Assembly (NCBI GenBank): GCA_963726845.1 | Contig: CAVSGB010000262.1 | Span: 6,696-70,695, forward strand | Origin: an uncultured Bacteroidota bacterium | GTDB taxonomy: Bacteria > Bacteroidota > Bacteroidia > Bacteroidales > DTGW01 | DNA length: 64,000 bases | Direction: 5' to 3' | Shown: piece by piece, positions 4,098 through 31,912 of the stretch | Position numbering within the stretch: position 1 is the first letter of the stretch | How the letters are laid out: every line of letters begins with the position of its first letter | The notes under the pieces: generated by a model | What the model saw: only the letters and a program-made list of their open reading frames with translations | Databases searched by the model: none | What the model was told of the DNA's origin: nothing | Made by a program: the position numbers and the translations under genes

Positions 4098-4324
4098 AAT
4101 TATTAATTTATCTATCTTAAATTAACCTCAGGTCGTGATAATTTACTTAGGGCTAAAGCTTTCTATTTAATTGTCTTTCACTAACCCCAGGCTTAAGCCT
4201 GGGGTTAGTCATCAAGTTGATATATTGGACTTTAGTCCAAAACATATATCTTATCCAGAACTGACTTTAAATTATATGTTCGATACATTGTTTCATGGCA
4301 TATTTTGACTTCAATATTCATTTA

Positions 4325-5881
4325 TCACTTTTCCATATTTGGGTTTAGTATTGTATCTGTTGCTGGTATTGGTGAAAAATAAACACTTTTATCGAAAACG
4401 GAAGGAGGCCCTCCTTCTTTAGGGTTGCGTATTTTAGGCAAATCCTCCACCATTTCGAGCCTTACCAGGTCGAACCAACGGCCTTCGGGTTCGCCGCTTA
4501 ATTCGCATGCACGCTCCTGTACTACCGAATCGGCAAATGCTGATGGCGATAAACCCGGGGACAGGTCGAAAGCTGAAGGCGAGTTTAAATCGAGTTGGTG
4601 TGCCCTGCGCCTTATTTGATTTATACAATCGTATGCTTTGGCATCGGGCTGGCCTGACCGTGCTATGCCTTCGGCATAAGTTAGCATTGTTTGCGCAAAC
4701 CTGAAAATATAAACCCTTGGAATACCTTCGAGCCAGCATACATTTGTGGTCGACGCATTTTTATCCTCGTTGCACTGATAATAAAATTTTCTATATTCAA
4801 TTCTATTGCAAGTACTTACTTTATCAATATGTAAATAACCTGTTTTCGTGCCACCGCCATTATTTGGGACATAAATTGTTTTAAAAAATGTTATTTCCTT
4901 CCGATATCCGGGCGGATAATTATTAAAGAAATTTACTTCTGAAGTGAAATAAAACAGGGCCATATTTGGAGAATTAGCTGATGTTTGCAGTAATCCCAGA
5001 CAATTTAATCCGGAATATGGTATATGACTTACAGAGACATTTATCGAAAGATTTGCAAGTTTGGCAAAGTAAACAGAGAAAACAGATTCGGAATTCATAA
5101 TATGGGAGCTATCCCAAACATTGGCAAAATCGTTTAACAATCCAAACCCAAAATAACTGGCACTATCTATGCTTTCTCCTGCTTCCTTTGCCGCAAGCCC
5201 ATATTTTGAAATATCTTTTATTGGATATCCTCCCCAGTTTAAGTACAATTCGGCTAAAATGGCTTTGGCAGTGCCCCGGTGTACGGTAATATACGGAACC
5301 CGTGCAGAACTATTATTAACTGGTAACAGTCCCATTGCCAGTTTAAGGTCGTTTTCTATAAAGCTGTACATTTCAGTATAAGTTGCTTTTGTTGAAGTAT
5401 AGCTAATATCAATATTTTTTATTATCGGTATCTGCCCATAAACTCTTGTAAGCCTGAAATAGCAGTATGCCCTTATCAAATATATTTCTCCTAATGCTTG
5501 TTTAGTTAGTTTATCTTTTAATTGGGCCAAATTATACTGTTTTAATATGTTATTTGCTGAAACTATTGCGGAATAAAAAGACGCCCAATTATATGAAGCA
5601 GAATAAAATGAATAATTTGTGGCCTGAAAACAATTAGCATTTTGTATGTAATACGAATCATAATCTGGATTACCTGCAGTCAAATCATCCCCTTTTAAAT
5701 TTGGAGTATAAAAATTATTGTCACTTATTGCATTGGCAAGCGCTCCATATAAACCATTGGTTGCCGAAACCAACTGGTTGTAGTTTTGAATTTTCCCTAT
5801 TGAAATATCTTCGGGATGTAGTATTTTCTGGCAATTTGTAAAAAATAAAACCATCAGTGTAAAAAGTAATATCTTTTTCAT
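4325..5881 (-). CDS. susD: SusD/RagB-family outer-membrane nutrient-binding lipoprotein
   Basis: 518 aa with lipoprotein signal MKKILLFTLMVLFFTNC. It sits immediately downstream of the SusC-like gene. Size and composition are typical of SusD homologues. Confidence 0.8.
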   Translation of the reverse strand: MKKILLFTLMVLFFTNCQKILHPEDISIGKIQNYNQLVSATNGLYGALANAISDNNFYTPNLKGDDLTAGNPDYDSYYIQNANCFQATNYSFYSASYNWASFYSAIVSANNILKQYNLAQLKDKLTKQALGEIYLIRAYCYFRLTRVYGQIPIIKNIDISYTSTKATYTEMYSFIENDLKLAMGLLPVNNSSARVPYITVHRGTAKAILAELYLNWGGYPIKDISKYGLAAKEAGESIDSASYFGFGLLNDFANVWDSSHIMNSESVFSVYFAKLANLSINVSVSHIPYSGLNCLGLLQTSANSPNMALFYFTSEVNFFNNYPPGYRKEITFFKTIYVPNNGGGTKTGYLHIDKVSTCNRIEYRKFYYQCNEDKNASTTNVCWLEGIPRVYIFRFAQTMLTYAEGIARSGQPDAKAYDCINQIRRRAHQLDLNSPSAFDLSPGLSPSAFADSVVQERACELSGEPEGRWFDLVRLEMVEDLPKIRNPKEGGPPSVFDKSVYFSPIPATDTILNPNMEK

Positions 5882-6017: not shown

Positions 6018-9000
6018 TTAAAATTTAATACTTAAAGTGGCATACATTGATTTTGGGTTCGGCACCGAGCCACGATCAATGGCATTATCAGAAAAATTAT
6101 TATCGGTAAAAGTGGTGGCTTCCGGGTCGTACCCTTTATATTTAGTGAATGTAAATATGTTTTCGAAACTTAATGATAATCTAAATTTCATGTGATTAAA
6201 AAGTTCTTTTGTTGGTACGTAACTAAGGGTAATGGTTTTTAATCGTATAAAACTTGCATCGTCAATAAATACAGACGACTGATAAAAAACTGAAGTGGTC
6301 ATAGCATTTAAACTGTCGCGAAAGTAATTGTTTACTTCCCGGTTAGTACCCGTCATAAAAGTTGCTGCCCGTGTGGCGTTGTATTTTTTAACACCCTGCA
6401 CAGCATACCAAAGAATAATTAAACTGAAATTTTTATATTGAAAAGTATTGGAAAAATCCCAGGTATATTTTGGGATTGAATTCCCAATAACTACCATATC
6501 GTTTGTGGTAAGGCTTTTATTGGTTGTGTCGGCATTCAAATATTTCATTCCACCTGATCGGACATAATGAATATCTTTTGCACGGGTATCGGAAGCAGTC
6601 CATTTGCCCAGGTTCTTATAGCCATAAATATCACCAATCGGCTGTCCTTCTTTGATAATAAACTCAGGCATCAATACGTCCGATGTACTTGCAAAAACCA
6701 TTGGCTGGTCATTCAGTACTTTCTTTACAATTTGGTGCGAAATAGAGATGTTAAATTTAGTATTCCAGGAATAAGTGCCAGTTTTCACGGGGTTTGCTTC
6801 AAGACATAATTCTGAACCATTTACGGCTATTGTACCGACATTGAGGTATTGCATCCCGCCACCATAATAATAGGGTATCTGACGTTGAATAATCAGGTTG
6901 CTTATGCTCTTAACATAATTGGTAGCAGTAATTGAAACCTTCCTATCGAAGAACATACTTTTAATTCCATAATCAAATTCATCTGTTTTTTCATGTTTCA
7001 GGTTATGGTTGGCTAATTGTAAAACGGCAGGGTAGGTTCCGGTTATGCTACCAAGCGTATATTGGACATTTTGGTATAAATCATTGGCCAGGCCATTAAG
7101 CGGAAAGTTCCCACTTTCACCCCAGTTGGCATATAGGTTTAAATTATTTAACCAGATAATTTGTTTGAAAGGCCATTCCCGTGCAATATCCCAATTTACT
7201 GCCAAAGAAGGGAATAAAGCATAATAATTTGTGTACAGCCCTTCCTTGATATGACTTAAATTTGTCACAGCCGATATAAAGTAAGTTTCATTATAATTAT
7301 GACCTGCATTGGCCACATAAGAACCAATGGAACGTAGCACTGAACCATTTGGCCCATAAGCCGCCATAGAATTGCGCAGGTACGAGTAGCTATTCAACTC
7401 ACCCTGCATCGGTATCAACTTTCCACCAAAGGTTATCTTCATAAAACCTATAAGCTGCAACCAGATCTATTTTGTGTTTACCAAATGTATTGAAATAGGA
7501 AACATTATACTGATGGTTGTATAAAAAAACATCTTCATTACTTTTTATCGTGTTCATTACACTTCCAAGACTATTGAAAGATTGATCGGAACTGTAATTA
7601 TAAACGGAATATCTCAGCATTAACGATTCCATGGCATTCAGGCTTAGGTGATCGGTAAGTTGCAGCCTTGCCGAACCGCTAATTATATGCGAATTGATGT
7701 TTAAGCTATTAGTATTATTAGCGATTATCTGTTGTACCGGCTCTTTTTGGTTTAAGGAAGTATAATTATAATATATTCTTTTATAGTAGTTATTATATTG
7801 ATCGTGATAAAGTGAATCAGGGGTTGATTTGATACAGGGCGATTTGGTTATTCCTACAAAAAGAAGCGGGTTGCCCATGTAAATATCCTGATTGTCATTA
7901 TTGTCCTGTGAACTTCCACGGTAACCAATATCTATGGCTAATTTTTTCCAAAATATCCGGCTAAGCCTTGTTGAAAGGGTATATCTCCTATAGCTTGCAT
8001 TTGGCAAAATACCTTGTTGGTTGGTATAATTACCCGATAAATAATATTTTATAGTTTTAACTGTGCCCGATGCCGACAATTGATATTCCTGGGAAGAGCC
8101 ATTACGGAATATTTCTTTTTGCCAGTTGTCATTACTAGGATTGTTAGTAATTTTCGGATAATAGTTGTATAAATATGACTGGATATTATTTTTTGCTAAT
8201 TGAAGCGAAGAAAGAAAATCCTGTGTGTTCATCAGGTCATAAAAATTATTGAACCATTGAATACCTCCTTTAGTGGAGAAGCGAATCTCGTTTTCACCAC
8301 CTTTTTTGGTATCAATCAAAACTACCCCATTTCCACCCTGGAAACCATATAACGCTGTTGATGAGGCATCTTTAAGCACGGTAACATTTTCAATATCGTG
8401 GATATTAAGGTCGGCAATGCCCAAACTGGACATATTTACAATAGGCACTGGCACCCCATCAACCACGTATAAAGGTTCGGCTGATGAAAAGAATGAATTT
8501 TGACCCCGAATCCTTATTTTTTCATGATCACCCGGAAGGCCCGATGTACTTGTTGCCCATACGCCTGTGATACTGGAATGTAAAATATCAGAAGCATTGT
8601 TTACGTTTTGCAGTTCAATGGTTTTGGCATTAATAGTTGGTATGTCCCTGCCATATTCCATACTGCCAAAGAACTTACGCTGACTTGAAACCTTTACTTC
8701 CTGTATTTGGCTGGTATAGGGTCTAAAAATAACATCTATCGACGTATCGCCAACCACATTTATTTTTCTTTCATAATCCTTATAACCAATAAACCTATAC
8801 ACTATTGTATATTCACCTGGCAAAAGGCTTATGGAATAAGTGCCATCAGAATTGCTTACAGTACCTGAAGTTTCTCCTTTAATATAAATGCTTGTGCCTG
8901 CCATGGTTTCATGTGTTGCGGAATCAACTACAATCCCGGTAATTTTGAATTTTGTGGTTGATTTTTTCTTTTTCAGGATTATGTAATCATCTTTTAATTC

Positions 9001-20902: not shown

Positions 20903-21000
20903 CTCCTGTCTCCTGATTCCTGTCTCCTGTCTCCCGTCTCCTGCCTCCTGACTCCCGTCTCCGGATTCCTGCCTCCTGCCTCCGGTCTCCGGTCTCCTGT
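20903..21000. repeat. tandem heptamer array CTCCTGT-type, 14 in-phase units
   Basis: CTCCTGT CTCCTGA TTCCTGT CTCCTGT CTCCCGT CTCCTGC CTCCTGA CTCCCGT CTCCGGA TTCCTGC CTCCTGC CTCCGGT CTCCGGT CTCCTGT. The array ends 3 nt from the manA stop codon (21004). Confidence 0.95.
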
Positions 21001-21003
21001 TCC

Positions 21004-21984
21004 TTATTTAATATAGACCTCTAAAATTTGTGCTAACCCTTTGGGTTCCAGAATAAGATTTTTTATCGCGGCCGGAATTAATACACATTCACCCTTATCG
21101 ACCTCTACATTTTCAATCCCTTCAGTTTTTATAATGAAATTGCCATCAACAGCAATATAAATTACAAATGAATCAATAAGGATATAATCTTTTTCGACAG
21201 GTTTATCGAAATACAAAACATTGGTAAAAAAGTACGGGCAATCTACCATATTCGAAGTATGGTTTAGCCTGGTTTCATATTTTGATTTATAACACGGATA
21301 ATAATTAAAATCAATTGCTTTCAAGGCCAAGTCGGTATGAAGTTCACGTGGATTGCCTTTATCATCCTTTCGGTTCCAGTCGAAAATGCGATATGTGATA
21401 TCTGAAGATTGCTGAATTTCGGCAAGTAGGATCCCAGCACCAATTGCATGGATACGACCGGGCGGAAGGTAAAAAACGTCTCCCTTTTTTACCTTTTCGA
21501 AATTTAGGATTTCAGGAAGTGTATTGTTATTGAGATGATCAAGGTAAATTTTATCATCGACTTTTTGATTGAAACCAACTATCAATTCTGCTCCCGGCTC
21601 ATGGTCGACAATGTACCACATTTCAGCTTTCCCCGGACAATTGTGATATTCCCGGGCCATTGTATCATCGGGATGCACCTGGATTGAAAGTTTGTCGTTT
21701 GCATCGATGAACTTAATAAGCAAAGGGAATTTTTCGCCAAAAACCTCATAAACACTATCGCCTACCAAATCGCCCAGGTATATTTCAATAAGCTCATTCA
21801 AATTATTCCCGGCTAAGAAACCATTGCTGATCATTGAAACATCATCATTAACATCGGCTATATCCCAACTTTCACCGCAAACTATGGAAGCTCCTGTTTT
21901 GTGAAGTATATTTCTCAACCTGCTGCCGCCCCAAATTTTATCTTTTAAAATAGGATAGAACTTTAAAGGGTAAAGTTGGTTCAT
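21004..21984 (-). CDS. manA: class I mannose-6-phosphate isomerase
   Basis: 326 aa: MNQLYPLKFYPILKDKIWGG.., ..LSIQVHPDD.., ..GRIHAIGAG... Confidence 0.85.
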   Translation of the reverse strand: MNQLYPLKFYPILKDKIWGGSRLRNILHKTGASIVCGESWDIADVNDDVSMISNGFLAGNNLNELIEIYLGDLVGDSVYEVFGEKFPLLIKFIDANDKLSIQVHPDDTMAREYHNCPGKAEMWYIVDHEPGAELIVGFNQKVDDKIYLDHLNNNTLPEILNFEKVKKGDVFYLPPGRIHAIGAGILLAEIQQSSDITYRIFDWNRKDDKGNPRELHTDLALKAIDFNYYPCYKSKYETRLNHTSNMVDCPYFFTNVLYFDKPVEKDYILIDSFVIYIAVDGNFIIKTEGIENVEVDKGECVLIPAAIKNLILEPKGLAQILEVYIK

Positions 21985-23024: not shown

Positions 23025-24641
23025 ATGAACTTTAAAAATTCTGTTTTTCTAAGTGTTTTAAGTGGAATTTTATTAAGCCTGGCATGGTTCGACTGGTCAA
23101 GTGGATTGTATTTATTTATTGCCCTGTTACCTTTATTACAAGTAGAAAAAAAAATAACCAATTCTGAAATAAAAAATAAAGGAAGGGTAATTTTTCTATT
23201 TGCATCACTTGCATTTTTAATATGGAATGTAGCCGATACATGGTGGATTTCGTACGTTACAATTGTTGGCGCATCGGCTGTAATCCTTGCCAATACATTT
23301 CTGATGGCCACCGTATTCTGGCTATTTCACATTACAAAAAGAAAACTCGGAAACTTTATCGGTTATGCTTCTATAATTATTTACTGGACTGCATTTGAAT
23401 ACCTGTTTCTTAATGGAGAATTGTACTGGCCCTGGTTAAATTTTGGAAACGGGTTTGCGAATAATATCAAGCTTATTCAATGGTACGAATACACAGGAGT
23501 ATTAGGTGGAACGGTTTGGTGCCTGACAATGAATATCATCTTATTTTGCCTGATAAATTCATTTCATTCAGGGAAGAAAAACCTGCTGTCAATTTTTTCA
23601 ATTGTACTGTTTTTAATATTTTCAATAACTATAGCCTGGTCTATAGGCCTTTACAAGAAAAATGTTTCATATAAGGGTAGATCATACAAAATAGTTGTTG
23701 TCCAGCCAAACATCAATCCTTTTACTGAAAAGTTTGGTAGTTTGAGTTGCAGGCAGCAATTGAACAAGATACTAAAATTAGCAAATCAAAATGCCGATAC
23801 AACAATTGATTATTTTCTTTGTCCCGAAACTGCTATTGTCGATTCGATATGGGAAGATTCGATTAATACAAACCAGCACCTGAAGAAAATCAGGGAATTT
23901 ATAAGACCTTATCCTAAAGCAAAGTTTATTATTGGTTTAACGTTATACAAAAAATATATTTTGAGGGACAAAACAAACTATACCGCCCGTAAACTGGAAA
24001 ATACAAATTTATATTACGACACCTACAACGCGGTAGTCCAAATCGATAGCAGCAATTACTTGCCTATTTACCGTAAATCGAAAATGGTAATCGGGCTTGA
24101 AAGAATCCCTTATCAACGGCAATTTTCTTTTTTAACCAATTCAACAATCGACCTGGGAGGCCCTTCGGGGAGCTTGGGATTTCAGGATAACCGGTATGTT
24201 TTTATGAACAAAAGCGATGGTTTGAAAATAGCGCCCATAATTTGTTACGAATCCGATTTTGGAGAATATGTAACCGATTATGTCAAAAAAGGCGCCGGTT
24301 TATTTTTTATTATTACCAATGACGGTTGGTGGGGCAACAGCCAGGGAACCAAACAGCACCTTGCTTTCGCAAGGTTACGTGCGATTGAGAATCGAAGAAG
24401 TATTGCCAGATCTGCAAATACGGGTATTTCATCTTTTATAAGCCAGACAGGAGAGATAACTGACAATACAAAAATTGGTGAAGCTACTGTAATAAAAGGT
24501 AGTTTGATGGTAAATAATGAAACAACATTTTATACACTTCATGGCGATTATATTGGCAGGATTGCCCTGACACTGGCAATTTTATTCTTTTTAATGGTAT
24601 TGGCGAAGTTTATATTAAAAATAGCCGGCATTGTTTATTGA
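23025..24641 (+). CDS. lnt: apolipoprotein N-acyltransferase
   Basis: 538 aa. A polytopic N-domain is followed by a CN-hydrolase domain (..VVVQPNINPF.., ..PIICYESDFGEY.., ..NDGWWGNS..). Confidence 0.9.
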   Translation: MNFKNSVFLSVLSGILLSLAWFDWSSGLYLFIALLPLLQVEKKITNSEIKNKGRVIFLFASLAFLIWNVADTWWISYVTIVGASAVILANTFLMATVFWLFHITKRKLGNFIGYASIIIYWTAFEYLFLNGELYWPWLNFGNGFANNIKLIQWYEYTGVLGGTVWCLTMNIILFCLINSFHSGKKNLLSIFSIVLFLIFSITIAWSIGLYKKNVSYKGRSYKIVVVQPNINPFTEKFGSLSCRQQLNKILKLANQNADTTIDYFLCPETAIVDSIWEDSINTNQHLKKIREFIRPYPKAKFIIGLTLYKKYILRDKTNYTARKLENTNLYYDTYNAVVQIDSSNYLPIYRKSKMVIGLERIPYQRQFSFLTNSTIDLGGPSGSLGFQDNRYVFMNKSDGLKIAPIICYESDFGEYVTDYVKKGAGLFFIITNDGWWGNSQGTKQHLAFARLRAIENRRSIARSANTGISSFISQTGEITDNTKIGEATVIKGSLMVNNETTFYTLHGDYIGRIALTLAILFFLMVLAKFILKIAGIVY

Positions 24642-25100
24642 ATAATTCTGCTTTTTCATCCTTTCTTACTGATACGAAAATGAGTTCAGTGACTTTTTAC
24701 TTTTTGATTAGAAAACACACTCGCTAAAACCATGCAAATATGTAGCATAGGTTATCTATTCGTTTTAGTATCCTATATTTAGTAAAATAGATTTGAACTT
24801 ATTAGATAATAATTTAAGAAATTGAGATTTTTCCTTGGTTTTGGAAGTTGTTTTTTTGGAAGTATTTTTTATTTACATTAGATTTGAAATCAATTTTTTA
24901 GTAATTCAAAAAACCAAAAATGTTCAAAAAAATATTTCCCAGTTATTTAGATGTATTCGAGATGAAAAAACACGACTATATATTAGGAATAACGACAATT
25001 GGAGTAATGAAAATGTTTGGGCGTAATTCTTGATTTCACTTCTGGTTGTCTATGTAGATTCAGAGTTACTTTCACATTATATAGATAGTTAACTTAAAAA

Positions 25101-25166
25101 AGGTAAAATTACCTCAAAAACATTGCCTATTTAAAATAAATTAGTACATTTACGGTAAATTTACCT
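25101..25166 (+). promoter_or_regulatory. two copies of a palindromic operator-like site GGTAAA(A/T)TTACCTCAA upstream of the HTH-ImmA gene
   Basis: AGGTAAAATTACCT is at 25101..25114 and GGTAAATTTACC at 25154..25165. Both are followed by TCAA. The second ends 5 nt before the ATG at 25171. Confidence 0.6.
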
Positions 25167-25170
25167 CAAT

Positions 25171-26349
25171 ATGATAAATTCAATTTTAAATAAGAGTATC
25201 AATTTGCCTGAGACATCATCGTTAAAAAACTTGTTTCTTGAAAAATTGAAATTGTCAGGTTTAAGCAAAACTCAGTTTGAGAATCTAGCAAACATTCAAC
25301 GGCGCAGCCTTGATGGAATAATAGACAAAACATCAAAACAAACTGATATCATAAACCTACTCAAACTTGGTGAATTTCTTGAGTTGTCATTTGAAGATCT
25401 ATTAATATACCATTTCAAAGACAAACCTGTAGAAGAAATTAAAGAACTTCAAACTTCCATGGATATTACTTTTATTAATAAATCGTTTGATCTAAAAACT
25501 CTTACATCTCTATATTTTATTAGCAAGGAATCTACGATAGATGAATTGAAACAAAGAATATGTAACTTTTTTCAAATCGAATCCATTTATCAATATGATA
25601 GTGAATTAAATGAGGTTCTTTACAGCCGGACAAAAAGAAAGTTCAGTGATAAAATGAAAGATTTTTGGATAAAATCTTCTTATAAATACTTTGAACTTAT
25701 TGACAATCCAAATAATTACTCCAGAGAAGACTTAAAAGATTTAATTCCTAAAATTAAACCGTACACTCAAAATGTAGAAGATGGGTTACTTACGGTTTTT
25801 AGAGCCTTATACAATGTGGGGGTTACAGTTGTTTTTCAACCAATGTTACCTAAAACACAAATTAGGGGTGCTACATTTTTGATTAAAAACAAGCCATGTA
25901 TTGTAGTCACTGATCATTATAAAAGCTATCCTACCATTTGGTTCTCTATGTTACATGAACTACATCATGCTCTATTTGACTTAGAACAACTCTCTCATAG
26001 CAAGTATCATCTAACAGGGGAACCCGATCTTTTTTTAATTCAAGAAGATAAAGCAAATCAATTCGCATCAGATTATCTAATCTCTGATGAGAAAATGCGT
26101 TATATTGAACCATTTATCCATAATCATCTGATGGTGACAAAATTCTCAAAAGAACTTCAAATTCATCCATCTATAATATACTCTCAATTCCAATTTAGAC
26201 AAGCTGAAATTGGAAATAATTATTGGGCAGCTTTTAAAGAGCATTTCCCATCTGTTGAATTAGCTAAAAAATACTTGAATATTTCAAATTGGGATATAGA
26301 GTCCTTAGAAGTTGCCGCTTTAAAAGTAAAAGAACTATTAACAGTTTAA
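25171..26349 (+). CDS. fused XRE-type HTH + ImmA/IrrE (COG2856, M78-like) zinc metallopeptidase domain protein
   Basis: The N-terminal HTH-like segment is LSKTQFENLANIQRRSLDGIIDKTSKQTDIINLLKLGEFLELSFEDLL. The C-terminal part has an HExxH motif (SMLHELHHALFD). Confidence 0.75.
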   Translation: MINSILNKSINLPETSSLKNLFLEKLKLSGLSKTQFENLANIQRRSLDGIIDKTSKQTDIINLLKLGEFLELSFEDLLIYHFKDKPVEEIKELQTSMDITFINKSFDLKTLTSLYFISKESTIDELKQRICNFFQIESIYQYDSELNEVLYSRTKRKFSDKMKDFWIKSSYKYFELIDNPNNYSREDLKDLIPKIKPYTQNVEDGLLTVFRALYNVGVTVVFQPMLPKTQIRGATFLIKNKPCIVVTDHYKSYPTIWFSMLHELHHALFDLEQLSHSKYHLTGEPDLFLIQEDKANQFASDYLISDEKMRYIEPFIHNHLMVTKFSKELQIHPSIIYSQFQFRQAEIGNNYWAAFKEHFPSVELAKKYLNISNWDIESLEVAALKVKELLTV

Positions 26350-26350
26350 T

Positions 26351-26833
26351 ATGGAACAAAAGAAAAGCATTAAAACAAGTGATCTCTCCAAAGAGGAATT
26401 AGAGAGGTAGGATATTCTTCAAAAGGCTGAAGATGTAAAAGGTGAACAATTATCACTTAATTGGAAATCTGAATTAGTAGTTGAAAACGAAGCAGAAAAA
26501 CTAATCTCACAAAGAATTGATGATCCTGTTGAAAAGTTTCAACTTTATTATAAAGGATTACATAAATTGCTTAAAGATTTTCTACCGAAAGGAAAACAAA
26601 ATGAAGAAGCTAGACGATTAATTTATGATGAAAAGAATGTCTTAATTAATCGTGGAGCGAAAAAGGATGAAAAAGGAATTAGAGGAAGTGATGGCAGGAT
26701 GGCATATTTGGAGGATTTGGAACTTGCAATTAAAATTGTTGCAAATTGGATAACAAATAGAGAAAGTTACTATGACCTTTATCGTGCATTTTGGGATAAA
26801 AATGAAGGACTCAAATATGGTCATCAAGATTAA
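26351..26833 (+). pseudogene. hypothetical 160-codon ORF interrupted by an in-frame TAG at 26408..26410, partner of the HTH-ImmA gene
   Basis: The ATG at 26351 lies 1 nt after the upstream stop. It is in the same frame as listed ORF 26567..26833 (offset 216 nt). The reading is MEQKKSIKTSDLSKEELER*DILQKAEDVKGEQLSLNWK..., with only one stop in the frame. Confidence 0.55.
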
Positions 26834-26843
26834 AACGAACTAC

Positions 26844-26975
26844 GCCCAACATCGACTCACAAACAATGCGGGTTTCAGAAGGTTTGCAGGTGCAGTGGCA
26901 CGCGTGCAGCGGCATTGCCAGCGGACAAGGACGTTCCCCGCACTCCCGCATTGTTAGTAGCCGCAAGCGTTAGGC
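26844..26975 (+). other. GC-rich imperfect hairpin resembling an integron attC (59-be) site
   Basis: It starts with GCCCAAC (RYYYAAC inverse core) and ends with CAAGCGTTAGGC (GTTRRRY core). The inner stem is ACAAACAATGCGGG/CCCGCATTGTTAGT. The length of 132 nt is within the attC range. It is markedly GC-rich against AT-rich flanks and lies directly after a stop codon. Confidence 0.45.
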
Positions 26976-27045
26976 ACAATGAGGTTCATTTCAAATTTGG
27001 ATATTTTTTATTAAATGACTAATTTAGCCACAGAAATAAATTGAT

Positions 27046-27246
27046 ATGAATAAGACGAGAGTACATATAATTAAAAGAGAAGAGGGCTGGGCTGTAAAAA
27101 AAGAAGGTGGTCAGAAAGCATCCAGAGTATATGAATCGAAGAAGGATGCAGAAGAACATTCTCAATCATATAGAGAAAAGGGACATGATGTAATTGTTCA
27201 TCGACGAGATGGTTCAGTTGAGAAATGGGAAAAGGCTAAAGTTTAA
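27046..27246 (+). CDS. DUF2188-family small protein
   Basis: 66 aa: ..VHIIKREEGWAVKKEGGQKASRVYESKKDAEEHSQSYREKGHDVIVHRRDGSVE.., which fits the DUF2188 pattern. Confidence 0.65.
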   Translation: MNKTRVHIIKREEGWAVKKEGGQKASRVYESKKDAEEHSQSYREKGHDVIVHRRDGSVEKWEKAKV

Positions 27247-27892
27247 AATATTGAAAAATAGTTTTGAAAAAAATATCTTTATTAACTGTCCATTCGATAA
27301 CGATTATCATAAACTATTACGACCATTACTTTTTACGATTATTTATTGTGGATATAATCCAAGAATTGCATTAGAACGATTCGATTCTGCAGAATTAAGA
27401 TTAGATAAAATAAAACAATTAATTGATCAATCTTCATTGAGTATTCATGATTTGTCGAAAATCAAAGCAACAGAAAAGAATGAATATTATAGGTTAAATA
27501 TGCCTTTTGAGATTGGGTTGGATTTAGGTTGTAAGCTTTACAATCCGGATAAAAAATACAGAAATAAAAGAAGCTTAATATTAGAAAATGAACGTTATGG
27601 TTATCAAAAAGCCTTATCTGATATTTCAAGTTCTGATGTTAAATGTCATGGTGGTGACCCAGAGGACTTAGTTATAGAGGTTCGTAATTGGTTCTCTGAA
27701 TTAGGATGTTTGAATTTAATAAGTGGTTCTACAATATGGGACGATTATAACTTTTTCTTTACTGACTTTCATGAGGATAGGACTTTAAAAGGATTCAAAG
27801 AAAAAGATTTAGATAAAATGCCTGTTCCTGAGTTTATTTCCTATATTGAAAAATGGATTTTGAAAAACAATAAGCAAAATCACTGTGCCTAA
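27209..27892 (+). CDS. hypothetical protein with TIR-like / nucleoside-deoxyribosyltransferase-like fold features
   Basis: The ORF is open from 27194 (TTG); an ATG at 27209 or a TTG at 27251 are alternative starts. It has a beta-alpha-beta N-terminus IFINCPFDNDYHKLLRPLLFTIIYCGYNP. The motif RLNMPFEIGLDLG is reminiscent of the R-x-NV-x-FE-LG motif of COG4271-type TIR-like proteins. The stop codon lies inside GCCTAAC. Confidence 0.35.
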   Translation: MVQLRNGKRLKFKILKNSFEKNIFINCPFDNDYHKLLRPLLFTIIYCGYNPRIALERFDSAELRLDKIKQLIDQSSLSIHDLSKIKATEKNEYYRLNMPFEIGLDLGCKLYNPDKKYRNKRSLILENERYGYQKALSDISSSDVKCHGGDPEDLVIEVRNWFSELGCLNLISGSTIWDDYNFFFTDFHEDRTLKGFKEKDLDKMPVPEFISYIEKWILKNNKQNHCA

Positions 27893-27903
27893 CAAACGAT
27901 ACT

Positions 27904-28773
27904 ATGAAAGAAAAAGAAGGATTCGAACAATTAGCAGGTCAATATCCTGTCTCCGATAATTTTCTATTGGTTATGCATAAAGATAATTTAATTTATAAGT
28001 CAGGATACATTGGGCTTTTGTTTATCCCGCTAATGATAATCTTTAGCTCTTGTACATCTCGTGGTTTGGTTGAAAAGTCTGGCCAATGGGATCGTATACG
28101 ATGTGGTGAATACCTCTTAGAAAATGCAACGTGGAATGTTCAGGCTGTCAAAAGCAAGTGGACTGAGACTATTTTCTATGATACTCTAAAGGGCAGCCTG
28201 GGATGGAGATGGAATTTTTCGGGTGAAAAAGATGAGCCAAATAAATATGATGGTAAAACCTTTCCCGAAATTATTTTTGGTAGAAAACCTTTTAATGTAT
28301 ACCAAACTACTACTTCTCGACTGCCAGTAAAACTTAAATCAGCTAAATTCCGGCTCGAATATGAATATTTTGCGAAAGCAAGTGGGGCATATAATATTAC
28401 CACAGACATTTCATTCACCGATAGCATAAATCCCGGTGCAGAAAATATACGGGCAAAGATGATGATTTGGTTCGATCATCAGAATATTCAATTCTATGAA
28501 CCGGAGAAACTGAAATTGGCTACGATCGGAGGACTTCAATATAAAGTTTTCATCGATATCAATCATATTGGACCAGAAGGAAAATGGGCCTTCATTGCCT
28601 TATTGTCCGATAAATTTCCTTCGAAGGGGGAATTAAACCTAAATGAGTATTTTGACTATTTTCTTTCAGAAGGCGCCCTAAAACCTGAATGGTATTTATC
28701 GAGTATCGAATTAGGAAGCGAAATTTCATCGGGTAAAGGTGAAGTTATTTTTAAGCGGTTTATTGTCCATTAA
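27904..28773 (+). CDS. GH12-like beta-jelly-roll lipoprotein (possibly non-catalytic)
   Basis: A lipobox ..LMIIFSSC suggests a probable true start at the ATG near 27973. GH12-like blocks are present: ..GWRWNFSG..FPEIIFG.., AYNITTDISF.., ..AKMMIWF.. (Lys where GH12 has the nucleophile Glu of E-x-MIW), and ..SSIELGSEISSGKGEV... Confidence 0.45.
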   Translation: MKEKEGFEQLAGQYPVSDNFLLVMHKDNLIYKSGYIGLLFIPLMIIFSSCTSRGLVEKSGQWDRIRCGEYLLENATWNVQAVKSKWTETIFYDTLKGSLGWRWNFSGEKDEPNKYDGKTFPEIIFGRKPFNVYQTTTSRLPVKLKSAKFRLEYEYFAKASGAYNITTDISFTDSINPGAENIRAKMMIWFDHQNIQFYEPEKLKLATIGGLQYKVFIDINHIGPEGKWAFIALLSDKFPSKGELNLNEYFDYFLSEGALKPEWYLSSIELGSEISSGKGEVIFKRFIVH

Positions 28774-30244: not shown

Positions 30245-31912
30245 TAATTAGAGTCTGTCTTTAATATAGAATTATCAATAAAAACAAGGTTTTCAAGGGG
30301 CAAAATTAAGAATTTATTAGTATCTTGTTGACATAACAACAAGAATTTTGATTATGAAAATATTTAATGAATGGGTGCTGCGGTTTAATAAGGCTGATTG
30401 GGCTTCAAGTCCTGAATTTGGGCTTATCGACACGGTATTGGAATCCCACCCTGATATTATTAAAATAGTAAAAAATGACATTGTTAAGAATGAAAAAGAA
30501 AGCAATTTTGGTCGAAAAGATGTTCCAACAGTAGAGCAAATTGTTCGTTCAGCTATTTTTAAAGAAATGAAAGGATTAGATTATAGAGAACTTGAGTTTG
30601 CACAAAAAGATTCTCGTATCTGTTCTACATTTATTAAGCTCGATGACAGAAGACCGTTTAGCTTTCAGGTATTACAGAAATATATTTCAAAGATAACAGC
30701 AACCTCATTACATGAGCTGCTTGTAGCCATTAATAAGATAGCTATTTCAGAAGGTTTTGAAGATGTTTCCAAATTGCGTCAAGATTCAACTACAGTAAAA
30801 ACAAACATACATTACCCAACAAATAATGCATTGGTATGGGATTGCATTAAACAAACCCATCAATTATTAGAAGCTTTAAAAAAAGAGGAAGAAGATGTAC
30901 ACTATTTCAACTACATACAGGGAGCGAAAAAGCTGTACTTTAAAATAAATGTTACAAAATCGGATGATAAACGGTTGGTGTTATTCCAGAAACAACTTAT
31001 TATCTTTTCAAAAACTATCAACCAATTATCAAATGTTCTTAAAAAAAAAGCAAAGACTTTGATAGGAACCGCAATTCAAGCCCAACTTTATGAATTGATT
31101 GACACTCTGTTACAAGTATATGATATTACTAATCGCAAAGAGATTAAGGGTGAGGCAGTACCGAACTGTGATAAAATATTTTCGATATTTGAACGTCATA
31201 CAGACATAATAGTCAAAGGAAGTCGTGATGTTATCTTTGGGCACAAAGTTAATTTGGCTACAGGAAGAAGCAACCTAATACTTGATATTCAGACGTTATT
31301 GGGCAATCCATCGGATAAACAATTATATCAACCAACAATTAACAGAGTTGAAACCAATTACGAGAAAATCCCAAGAGACATTGCTACCGATGGTGGCTAT
31401 GCTTGTACAGATAATTTAAATTTCAGCAAAAATAAGGGCATTGCGAACATAGTATTCAATAAAATAGTAGGGAGTTTGCAAAATACAACATCCAGCAAAA
31501 AGCTTGAAACACAACTAAAAAAATGGCGAAGCGGCATAGAAGCCAATATATCGAACTGGAAACGAGGCTTTAATATTGCAACATGCAATTGGAAAGGATT
31601 TCCTCATTTCGAGTCGAAAATAATCTGGAGTGCTATTGCATATAATTTTAGGGTGTTAACAGCTTTGTTTTTAGACAAATACAAGTTGCAAACAATAAAA
31701 GTATAGAAATGAAAACATTCAAATATTTATTGGGATACGTATGTGCTGACGCATTCATTTTTAAGCAAAATTGCTAATTTTGAGCTATAAATTACTAAAA
31801 TCAAAATTAAAACCAATTTTGATAATAAATTCCTAAGCGGAAATTAGAAAAAACATCAAAACCCTTGATTAGAAAAATGAAAATGGTTGACTTTATGGAC
31901 AGACACTAATTA
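30245..31912 (+). mobile_element. insertion sequence (IS5/IS4-superfamily type) with imperfect terminal inverted repeats and a 6-bp TAATTA target-site duplication
   Basis: The left end is GAGTCTGTCTTTAA (from 30251). The right-end reverse complement is GTGTCTGTCCATAA (to 31906). Identical TAATTA copies sit at 30245..30250 and 31907..31912. A single transposase ORF lies inside. Confidence 0.8.
30354..31706 (+). CDS. DDE transposase (DUF772 N-domain + DDE_Tnp_1-like, IS5/IS1182-like)
   Basis: The DUF772-like segment is ..FGRKDVPTVEQIVRSAIFKEMKGLDYRELEF... DDE blocks are QDSTTVKTNIHYPTNNALVWD, IATDGGYAC and ..RSGIEANISNWKRGFN... The ATG at 30354 is preferred over the TTG at 30348. Confidence 0.85.
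   Translation: MKIFNEWVLRFNKADWASSPEFGLIDTVLESHPDIIKIVKNDIVKNEKESNFGRKDVPTVEQIVRSAIFKEMKGLDYRELEFAQKDSRICSTFIKLDDRRPFSFQVLQKYISKITATSLHELLVAINKIAISEGFEDVSKLRQDSTTVKTNIHYPTNNALVWDCIKQTHQLLEALKKEEEDVHYFNYIQGAKKLYFKINVTKSDDKRLVLFQKQLIIFSKTINQLSNVLKKKAKTLIGTAIQAQLYELIDTLLQVYDITNRKEIKGEAVPNCDKIFSIFERHTDIIVKGSRDVIFGHKVNLATGRSNLILDIQTLLGNPSDKQLYQPTINRVETNYEKIPRDIATDGGYACTDNLNFSKNKGIANIVFNKIVGSLQNTTSSKKLETQLKKWRSGIEANISNWKRGFNIATCNWKGFPHFESKIIWSAIAYNFRVLTALFLDKYKLQTIKV

Follow-up and report, generated by a model that had tools for sequence, protein, structure and literature searches.

We describe a GC-rich imperfect hairpin of 132 nucleotides (nt) at positions 26844-26975 of a 64-kb stretch of DNA from an uncultured Bacteroidales bacterium (contig CAVSGB010000262.1; the whole stretch is hereafter called the window). 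Our analysis suggests, with about an even chance of being right, that this element is a divergent attC-like site marking a cassette boundary at the junction of two anti-phage-type modules. The first-pass annotation had seen in it an integron attC site placed directly after a cassette-sized gene pair. This is right in kind and wrong in detail, the element not being a canonical attC of the upstream pair. The part of that interpretation that stands is the presence of conserved attC-like hairpins at module junctions in small arrays. The parts that do not concern the score obtained with an attC model, the spacing of the boxes, the bond with the upstream pair and the integrase.

Many of the features first described were recovered. 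The left end of the element, GCCCAAC, fits the inverse core RYYYAAC, and its right end, GTTAGGC, fits the core GTTRRRY (Table 1). Its length is inside the range known for attC sites, it starts 11 nt past the stop codon of the upstream gene (TAA, 26831-26833), and it is GC-rich in AT-rich surroundings, with a peak GC content per 100 nt of 0.62 against a window mean of 0.358 (standard deviation 0.070). This makes it the second GC-richest spot of the 64 kb. The inner stem is also as claimed, with arms of 14 nt each (26859-26872 and 26945-26958) that are 93% complementary and include 11 contiguous base pairs (bp; 26862-26872 with 26945-26955). The further pairing proposed toward the centre (GAAGG with CGTTC, TGGCA with TGCCA) is not kept in homologues and is absent from the consensus structure. 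Conserved pairing extends outward from the 11-bp stem, where AC (26859-26860) faces GT (26957-26958) and CGACT (26853-26857) faces AGCCG (26959-26963). Beyond this outer 5-bp stem come an asymmetric spacer, AT versus CAAGC, and a 7-bp terminal box that closes the hairpin. Read from its base on the minus strand, the element consists of the 7-bp terminal box, a spacer (5 nt in the 5' arm, 2 nt in the 3' arm), 5 bp, a bulged G, about 14 bp, and a centre of 72 nt. The single bulged G (the complement of C26858) is kept in every copy, in the 3' arm of the minus strand and about 15 nt from the end; in the attC of aadA1 the corresponding G is at position 16 by our own hand count on the sequence. All non-Watson-Crick pairs of the main stem, which occupy four columns, are G.T on the minus strand.

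Taken alone, the hairpin is not statistically unusual. Its folding z-scores are -1.4 on the plus strand and -1.6 on the minus strand, and perfect stems of at least 11 bp with loops of at most 100 nt number 7 in the window against 2.8 ± 1.6 in shuffled sequences. It is the conservation with compensatory changes in homologues that makes it a real element rather than a chance hairpin. In the two full copies first aligned, 26 pairs could be followed, with 96% of the cells paired (versus 32-46% when the partners are slid) and 4 compensatory pairs. With the third copy added, RNAalifold predicted 16 pairs independently, 7 of them with compensatory changes. The centres vary more: those of the L018 copies (see below) are 61% alike, and that of the window is only 43-46% identical to them outside the stem-proximal motifs. 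As in attC sites, an imperfect hairpin is conserved by its structure, with compensatory changes, while its sequence varies. Two other readings were discarded. A coding region or gene fragment fails because the centre, and hence the ORFs (open reading frames) across the element, are not conserved, and an invertible promoter fails because the conserved promoter-like motif sits outside the inverted repeats. The centre also contains the palindrome GCACGCGTGC, and two independent metagenome contigs (L003 and L004) both stop inside it, near window positions 26889-26898, which is probably an assembly break at the inverted repeat.

Homologous copies of the element are present in two further AT-rich metagenome contigs, L018 (L018/L019) and L127. 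They define a family of hairpins of about 130-146 nt with ends resembling RYYYAAC and GTTRRRY. A family covariance model built from the window, L018 and L127 sequences (R1, of which R3 is the refined version) scores the window copy at 153 bits and the other copies at 156, 54.6 and 35.9 bits. In 0.97 Mb of other loci, R1 recovered only the L018 copy, the L127 arm and a second L018 copy (1370-1515, 54.6 bits, E = 1.6e-11), and R3 revealed no additional family members in these loci or in the window. The order in L018 is HNH-like gene, element, AbiU gene, element and DUF2188 pair, all defence-type genes, the AbiU gene being flanked by the two copies. The copy upstream of the DUF2188 pair in L018/L019 has arms near-identical to those of the window element and a different centre. 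In L127, only a right arm precedes the DUF2188 pair and a left arm begins at the stop codon of the pair, so that this contig holds two half copies. The left ends read GCCCAAT in L018 copy 1, TACCAAC in L018 copy 2 and GCCTAAC in L127, and the right ends across the family read GTTAGGC, GTTTAGGC and, in L018 copy 2, GTTTGGGC. A CALIN-type array (cluster of attC sites lacking integrase, i.e., at least two attC sites within about 4 kb and no integrase) had been evoked for the window, which holds one full site only; in L018 two family sites do lie within 2.05 kb of each other, though the attC model discussed below does not recognize them as attC. No integrase was seen near a family member except in L127, whose minus strand (95-1306) encodes a Bacteroidetes-type tyrosine integrase that has an arm-binding domain. 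Between this gene and the half element, at about 1340-1365, two direct GGTACAAC repeats 4 nt apart resemble arm-type integrase binding sites.

Some candidates for further copies were rejected. Weak R1 matches at the edges of the island in which the element lies (24578-24626 and 27876-28021), which looked like relics, had E-values of 0.66 and 2.4 with R3. The region 27880-28022, tried as a relic of the hairpin, does not fold (z = 0.02) and kept only a real 13-nt repeat, CACTGTGCCTAAC. Searches for conserved 16-mers in viral_contigs gave 19 and 7 matches, which we attribute to chance because none extended past the seed of 16-20 nt.

These searches bear on the possibility, raised by the first-pass annotation as the alternative, that the element is a selfish palindromic repeat of the REP (repetitive extragenic palindromic)/REPIN or MITE (miniature inverted-repeat transposable element) type, lodged in intergenic DNA and having no role in moving its neighbours. 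Such a repeat would account for a hairpin with conserved arms and a freer centre, for intergenic sites after stop codons, for the presence of more than one copy in L018 and for the metagenome contigs that break inside the element. Yet REP-like elements have many dispersed copies, and we found a single one in the 64 kb of the window and none in the 0.97 Mb of other loci besides those of L018 and L127. The exact pattern of both 11-nt arms had no match in genome_contigs or viral_contigs, and apart from the source contig its matches in metagenome_contigs were limited to one unrelated AT-rich sequence and three palindromes due to assembly fold-back; the scans of the three collections thus point to the source contig only. 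BLASTN of the element against phage and plasmid collections gave no match, and neither did an nhmmer search of 80 genome loci for the copies of the window and L018. The two L018 copies are only about 60% alike, unlike the products of a repeat burst, and in three contexts the element is closely associated with the DUF2188 module. We regard a selfish repeat as quite improbable.

The boundaries of the modules show a pattern familiar from integrons, in which the last 6 nt of an attC site belong to the next cassette, so that the first 6 nt of a cassette complement its own inverse core. This is what the window presents, with first 6 nt of the form TTRRRY. The downstream module, formed by the DUF2188 gene and a 227-aa gene, starts with TTAGGC (26970), which complements GCCTAA (27887), where the stop codon of the 227-aa gene is located, and the same is found in L018 and L127. 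A stop codon inside the heptamer likewise occurs in the cassette of Cyanobium (L065). In L018, the AbiU module has TTGGGC complementing GCCCAA, and for the upstream module of the window TTGGGC at 25017 is the exact complement of GCCCAA at 26844-26849. As a left boundary of the upstream module, the 8-mer GTTTGGGC around this position is only suggestive, no arm preceding it. The rule fails for the first L018 module, which has no TTGGTA upstream. The complementarity of the DUF2188 module runs 6-7 nt further past the heptamers (ACAATGA with TCACTGT). In L145 (about 4200-4510), a class-1 cassette with a reverse-oriented small ORF also has 13 nt of complementarity, between its start GTTAGCACTCATC and GATGAGTGCTAAC, which ends in its own inverse core. 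The terminal box of the window element has one mismatch, C.A on the plus strand, as expected of a hybrid box.

The element appears to travel with the downstream pair, and this pair has a life as an integron cassette elsewhere. The DUF2188 pair of L018/L019 is 77% identical to that of the window. Across 80 genome loci from many phyla, the DUF2188 gene is coupled to the next gene in 66, the partner having about 210 aa in the pairs of Gammaproteobacteria and Cyanobacteria. We built an attC covariance model (R2) from 13 class-1 attC sites of annotated plasmids, with the R and L boxes paired. It is strand-specific. Its training sites obtain 36-70 bits, and it also has the sensitivity to detect attC sites that it was not trained on, those in the loci fetched via the 227-aa protein, at 17-35 bits. 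In a metagenome-assembled genome of Gammaproteobacteria (L094), canonical attC sites lie on both sides of the DUF2188 pair (5685-5771 and 6646-6711; 33 and 29 bits). In Cyanobium (L065), an attC site directly follows the pair (6673-6761; 25 bits), with GCCTAAC near the end of the protein match, and a second one occurs about 2 kb past the first (8796-8880). Sites directly after the pair were also found in L040 (4660-4729) and L090 (6622-6721), at 22 and 17 bits. Hence, the pair is a true and widespread integron cassette in other phyla, being flanked there by canonical attC sites. Defence systems are known integron cassette cargo (bioRxiv 10.1101/2024.07.02.601686), and in one Bacteroidota species DUF2188 has been described as a putative effector within a Thoeris island (bioRxiv 10.64898/2025.12.03.692087). 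A profile search of the Protein Data Bank (PDB) with the 227-aa family gave no significant match, and no common motif was found upstream of DUF2188 in the 66 loci.

A substantial set of results weighs against an attC-like function of the element. Given R2, the element is delimited exactly (26844-26975, plus strand) and obtains only 2.3 bits, which is not significant, so that a covariance-model check with R2, in the manner suggested in the first-pass annotation, did not come out in favour of attC; at E-values up to 10, R2 has no match in the whole window or at the L018 copies. We ascribe the low score to geometry: the inner stem begins 2 nt (not 5) past the left heptamer and has 5 bp (not 3). 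The caveat that the box spacing is non-canonical holds, with AT (2 nt) facing CAAGC (5 nt), whereas the 13 aligned class-1 sites have 5 nt facing 5-6 nt. The canonical order of an R box, spacers of about 5 nt and a 3-bp L box followed by an extrahelical base is not the one seen here. As to extrahelical bases on the bottom strand, for which a check had been proposed, there is one conserved bulged G and no second bulge, the usual bases in attC being G and T, and the wobbles favour the minus strand as the folded one. The family itself is small, the known set being limited to three full copies and two half copies. Two of its right ends begin with GTTT, in violation of GTTRRRY, and the terminal box of L018 copy 2 is poor. 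An integron integrase is also missing from the window: tblastn with IntI1 and the L127 integrase found nothing in the 64 kb, as the first-pass annotation had noted for intI, and the L127 integrase is far under the IntI cut-offs (68 bits versus 265 for TIGR02249). Integrons are very rare in Bacteroidota, where complete ones are nearly absent, with one in Salinibacter, according to a survey with IntegronFinder 2.0 that also indicates that single attC sites can be true positives (PMC9024848).

Other adverse points concern the unit that moves. The element had been tied to the upstream gene pair as its cassette site. This upstream module recurs in five other contexts in unrelated Bacteroidota (L010, L012, L014, L015 and L017) with 72-89% DNA identity, and the homology covers 1.75 kb (25079-26833), starting about 90 nt ahead of the first start codon and stopping exactly at the stop codon. 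No comparable hairpin follows the stop codon in any of the five, the sequence there being unrelated. Because the homology of the module ends at its stop codon and the element is absent from these contexts, we conclude that it is probably not part of the upstream pair. In L127, a site directly follows the DUF2188 pair. The window element is closest to the L018 copy at the same place upstream of DUF2188, though the upstream genes differ, and the block shared by the window and L018 spans from CGCCCAA to GCCTAA, i.e., the hairpin plus the downstream module, a misfit with a unit made of a gene and the attC downstream of it. Nothing like the hairpin follows GCCTAA in the window or L018, whereas L127 has a left arm there. 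Finally, the window contains two modules and one hairpin body, with the R'-like 8-mer bounding the array on the left and the R''-like heptamer on the right.

This last arrangement is what one might expect from a classical double-strand att site of a Bacteroidetes-type tyrosine integrase such as that of L127. The arms would be inverted core-type sites, and serial integration of modules would leave arm halves at the ends of the array. The L127 integrase has an arm-binding domain, its gene is 258 nt from the right arm with the two GGTACAAC direct repeats in between, and the left arm lies beyond the module. At the limits of the window array stand an R'-like 8-mer and an R''-like heptamer, neither with a hairpin body, and the block of homology with L018 runs from heptamer to heptamer. 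We nevertheless judge such a site rather unlikely. The argument comes from a single contig of 2.4 kb, where the integrase could equally belong to an element inserted into the hairpin, and no such integrase is present in the window or in L018. An overlap region would be far shorter than the 72-nt centre, and the strand-biased wobbles and the conserved bulge point to a folded single strand.

A folded single strand could also be an RNA. The element could be a structured non-coding RNA gene on the minus strand, divergent from the DUF2188 operon, for example an antisense or antitoxin-like regulator of the neighbouring defence modules. All wobbles would then be G.U on the minus strand, the compensatory changes would support the structure, and the unpaired stem-adjacent motifs AUUGCG and CUGAAAC of that strand are conserved; by eye, TTTG-containing motifs can be read just upstream on the minus strand in three copies. 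Such a gene would have no family in Rfam 15, in which nothing touches the element when 26300-27500 is searched at E-values up to 10 (the only gathering-score matches in the window are two tRNAs), and it would have no terminator-like site. Two unrelated modules, AbiU and the DUF2188 pair, would depend on one and the same RNA, the element is split in L127 while the module is intact, and the complementarity between module starts and following heptamers would be left unexplained. We consider an RNA gene unlikely.

The same stretch could act as a transcription barrier or insulator hairpin between two operons. Its position is suitable, between two co-directional operons, with a stop codon 11 nt before it and the next promoter-like motif after it. 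This motif, TAATTTAGCCACA, precedes the DUF2188 gene, is conserved in the window, L018, L127, L128 and L129, and resembles the Bacteroidetes -7 element; it may act as a promoter, which does not fit the first description of the downstream genes as promoterless-looking. There is, however, no T-run directly after the stem, the nearest one starting about 25 nt past the element, and no terminator-like site in 26600-27300. The strand that pairs better is antisense to both operons, the conserved end heptamers and unpaired motifs are left unexplained, and the upstream module does elsewhere without the element. Of this role we think very little.

If the element is an attC-like cassette-boundary site, it would work as a folded single-stranded hairpin, the folded strand most likely being the minus strand, complementary to the genes. 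A tyrosine recombinase would target this hairpin to excise and insert gene cassettes. The candidate crossover of canonical type would be G/TTAGGC at 26969/26970, and a second candidate, GCCCAA/C at 26849/26850, is suggested by the co-inheritance with the downstream module. The two types of evidence differ here, since the shared block of hairpin and downstream module suggests a crossover at the inverse-core side and the strand asymmetry suggests the canonical geometry instead. The window copy is probably not an active platform but a remnant of an array, left stranded, because there is no recombinase gene in the 64 kb and only one full site in the window. A bolder proposal, to which we assign a low probability, is that Bacteroidales and their relatives own an integron-like cassette system. 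Its distinct sites, hairpins of about 140 nt, would be missed by standard attC models and used by a non-IntI tyrosine recombinase (e.g., the arm-binding integrase of L127), possibly with an inverse-core-side crossover, and through this system anti-phage modules, each with its own promoter, would be exchanged among defence islands.

If the sites are functional, cassette capture of defence genes would reach further than standard attC models show, and new insight into how sites are recognized and cut would come from the non-canonical spacing and from the apparent link to the downstream module. The R3 model together with the heptamer rule would also help to locate where cassettes begin and end in the defence islands of Bacteroidota. 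Even as a mere relic, the element would be a record of the DUF2188 pair, an integron cassette, having been transferred to the chromosome of a Bacteroidales bacterium.

Table 1. Features of the element and of its two neighbouring modules (window coordinates).
Feature	Position	Strand	Description
Candidate R'-like left boundary of upstream module, GTTTGGGC	25015-25022	+	8-mer found once in the window; identical to the R' end of L018 copy 2
Upstream two-gene module	25171-26833	+	ImmA/M78-like gene, 392 aa (25171-26349), and 160-aa gene (26351-26833)
Hairpin element	26844-26975	- (better-pairing strand)	Terminal box, asymmetric spacer, 19-pair stem with one bulged base, 72-nt centre
GCCCAAC, inverse-core-like (R''-like) heptamer	26844-26850	+	Left limit of the homology with L018
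Left stem arm	26853-26872	+	CGACT, bulged C26858, AC, mismatched A, 11-nt AACAATGCGGG
Centre	26873-26944		72 nt, 65% GC; conserved stem-proximal motifs TTTCAGAAGG (26873-26882) and CCGCACT (26938-26944)
Right stem arm	26945-26963	+	CCCGCATTGTT, A, GT, AGCCG
GTTAGGC, core-like (R'-like) heptamer	26969-26975	+	Last 6 nt, TTAGGC, exact complement of GCCTAA at 27887-27892
ACAATGA	26976-26982	+	With the R'-like heptamer, forms a 13-14-nt inverted repeat with 27880-27893
Promoter-like motif TAATTTAGCCACA	27011-27023	+	Conserved, Bacteroidetes -7-like; ahead of the DUF2188 gene
DUF2188 gene	27046-27246	+	66 aa; Pfam PF09954, E = 4e-10; PADLOC PDC-S16
227-aa gene	27209-27892	+	Function not assigned; overlaps the DUF2188 gene; last codons CAC TGT GCC TAA in element-type sequence
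GCCTAAC, R''-like heptamer with stop codon	27887-27893	+	Right limit of the homology with L018 and L127

The element lies in a small island between lnt (23025-24641) on one side and a lipoprotein gene followed by meaB on the other; MeaB is 66-68% identical to named Bacteroidales proteins. In the upstream module, the ImmA/M78-like gene is similar to PD-Lambda-2_B, and the 160-aa protein belongs to a family 70-90% conserved across Bacteroidota. The 160-aa gene has an in-frame TAG at 26408-26410, where an otherwise identical database protein (P0001) has Q (CAG); this may be a nonsense allele or a sequencing error. The block 26844-27893 is flanked, in the manner of a target duplication, by a direct repeat of 10 out of 12 columns with one gap (AAACGAACTAC at 26833-26843 and AAACGATACTA at 27894-27904). 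We discarded the reading as a target duplication and treat the repeat as a probable chance match because it has no counterpart in L018. In L018 itself, the DUF2188 pair ends with GCCTAAT and is followed by a perfect 20-bp hairpin (GAGAGGTTCTCCGATAGGTT/AACCTATCGGAGAACCTCTC, 4475-4520), which occupies the position of the family left arm in L127. Elsewhere in the window, the GC-richest spot consists of 14.7 tandem copies of the heptamer CTCCTGT (also with a 28-nt period) at 20903-21004, between two minus-strand ORFs, and an insertion sequence-type DDE transposase gene (PF01609) is found at 30348-31706, just past meaB and about 3.4 kb from the element.

How does the element compare with known systems? 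REPINs, mobilised by RAYT transposases, number from tens to hundreds per genome, in near-identical copies, and show no bond with particular gene modules. The element shares with REP sequences and REPINs the format of an extragenic hairpin of about 100 nt with two inverted conserved arms and a freer loop, and differs from them in that a high copy number was not seen. The pdif sites are 28-bp double-strand sites that depend on Xer. Like them, the element is associated with discrete gene modules, often of toxin-antitoxin or resistance type in the Xer systems, that are bounded by short inverted recombination sites and occur in many contexts; unlike them, it is a hairpin of 130 nt in which no dif-like 11-6-11 arrangement is evident. 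Sedentary chromosomal integrons, such as that defined by the Vibrio cholerae repeats, carry tens to hundreds of near-identical sites next to intI. The element family has one or two sites per contig, copies that are 60-75% alike and no intI seen. Yet it resembles the attC families of Vibrio cholerae type in its long sites (about 120-130 nt there), in the sequence shared across unrelated cassettes of one lineage, and in its cargo, since these families include toxin-antitoxin and defence cassettes with their own promoters.

The remaining comparison is with attC sites and CALINs as defined by IntegronFinder. The element departs from them in its score of 2.3 bits, its spacer of 2 nt instead of 5, its 5-bp L-box stem (3 bp in attC), its single extrahelical base (two or three in attC) and a centre that is partly conserved between copies. 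It also departs from them in being apparently inherited with the downstream module, in its Bacteroidales host and in having no known IntI. The likeness to attC sites and CALINs covers the length of the element, its RYYYAAC and GTTRRRY ends, the preservation of structure over sequence and the short arrays devoid of integrase. One strand pairs better and has a bulged G about 15 nt from its 3' end, and the element comes directly after the stop codon of an ORF, this stop being inside the heptamer in L127 and at window position 27887. Finally, as in integrons, the first 6 nt of the cassette complement its own inverse core, and the cargo consists of defence genes with a putative promoter of their own.

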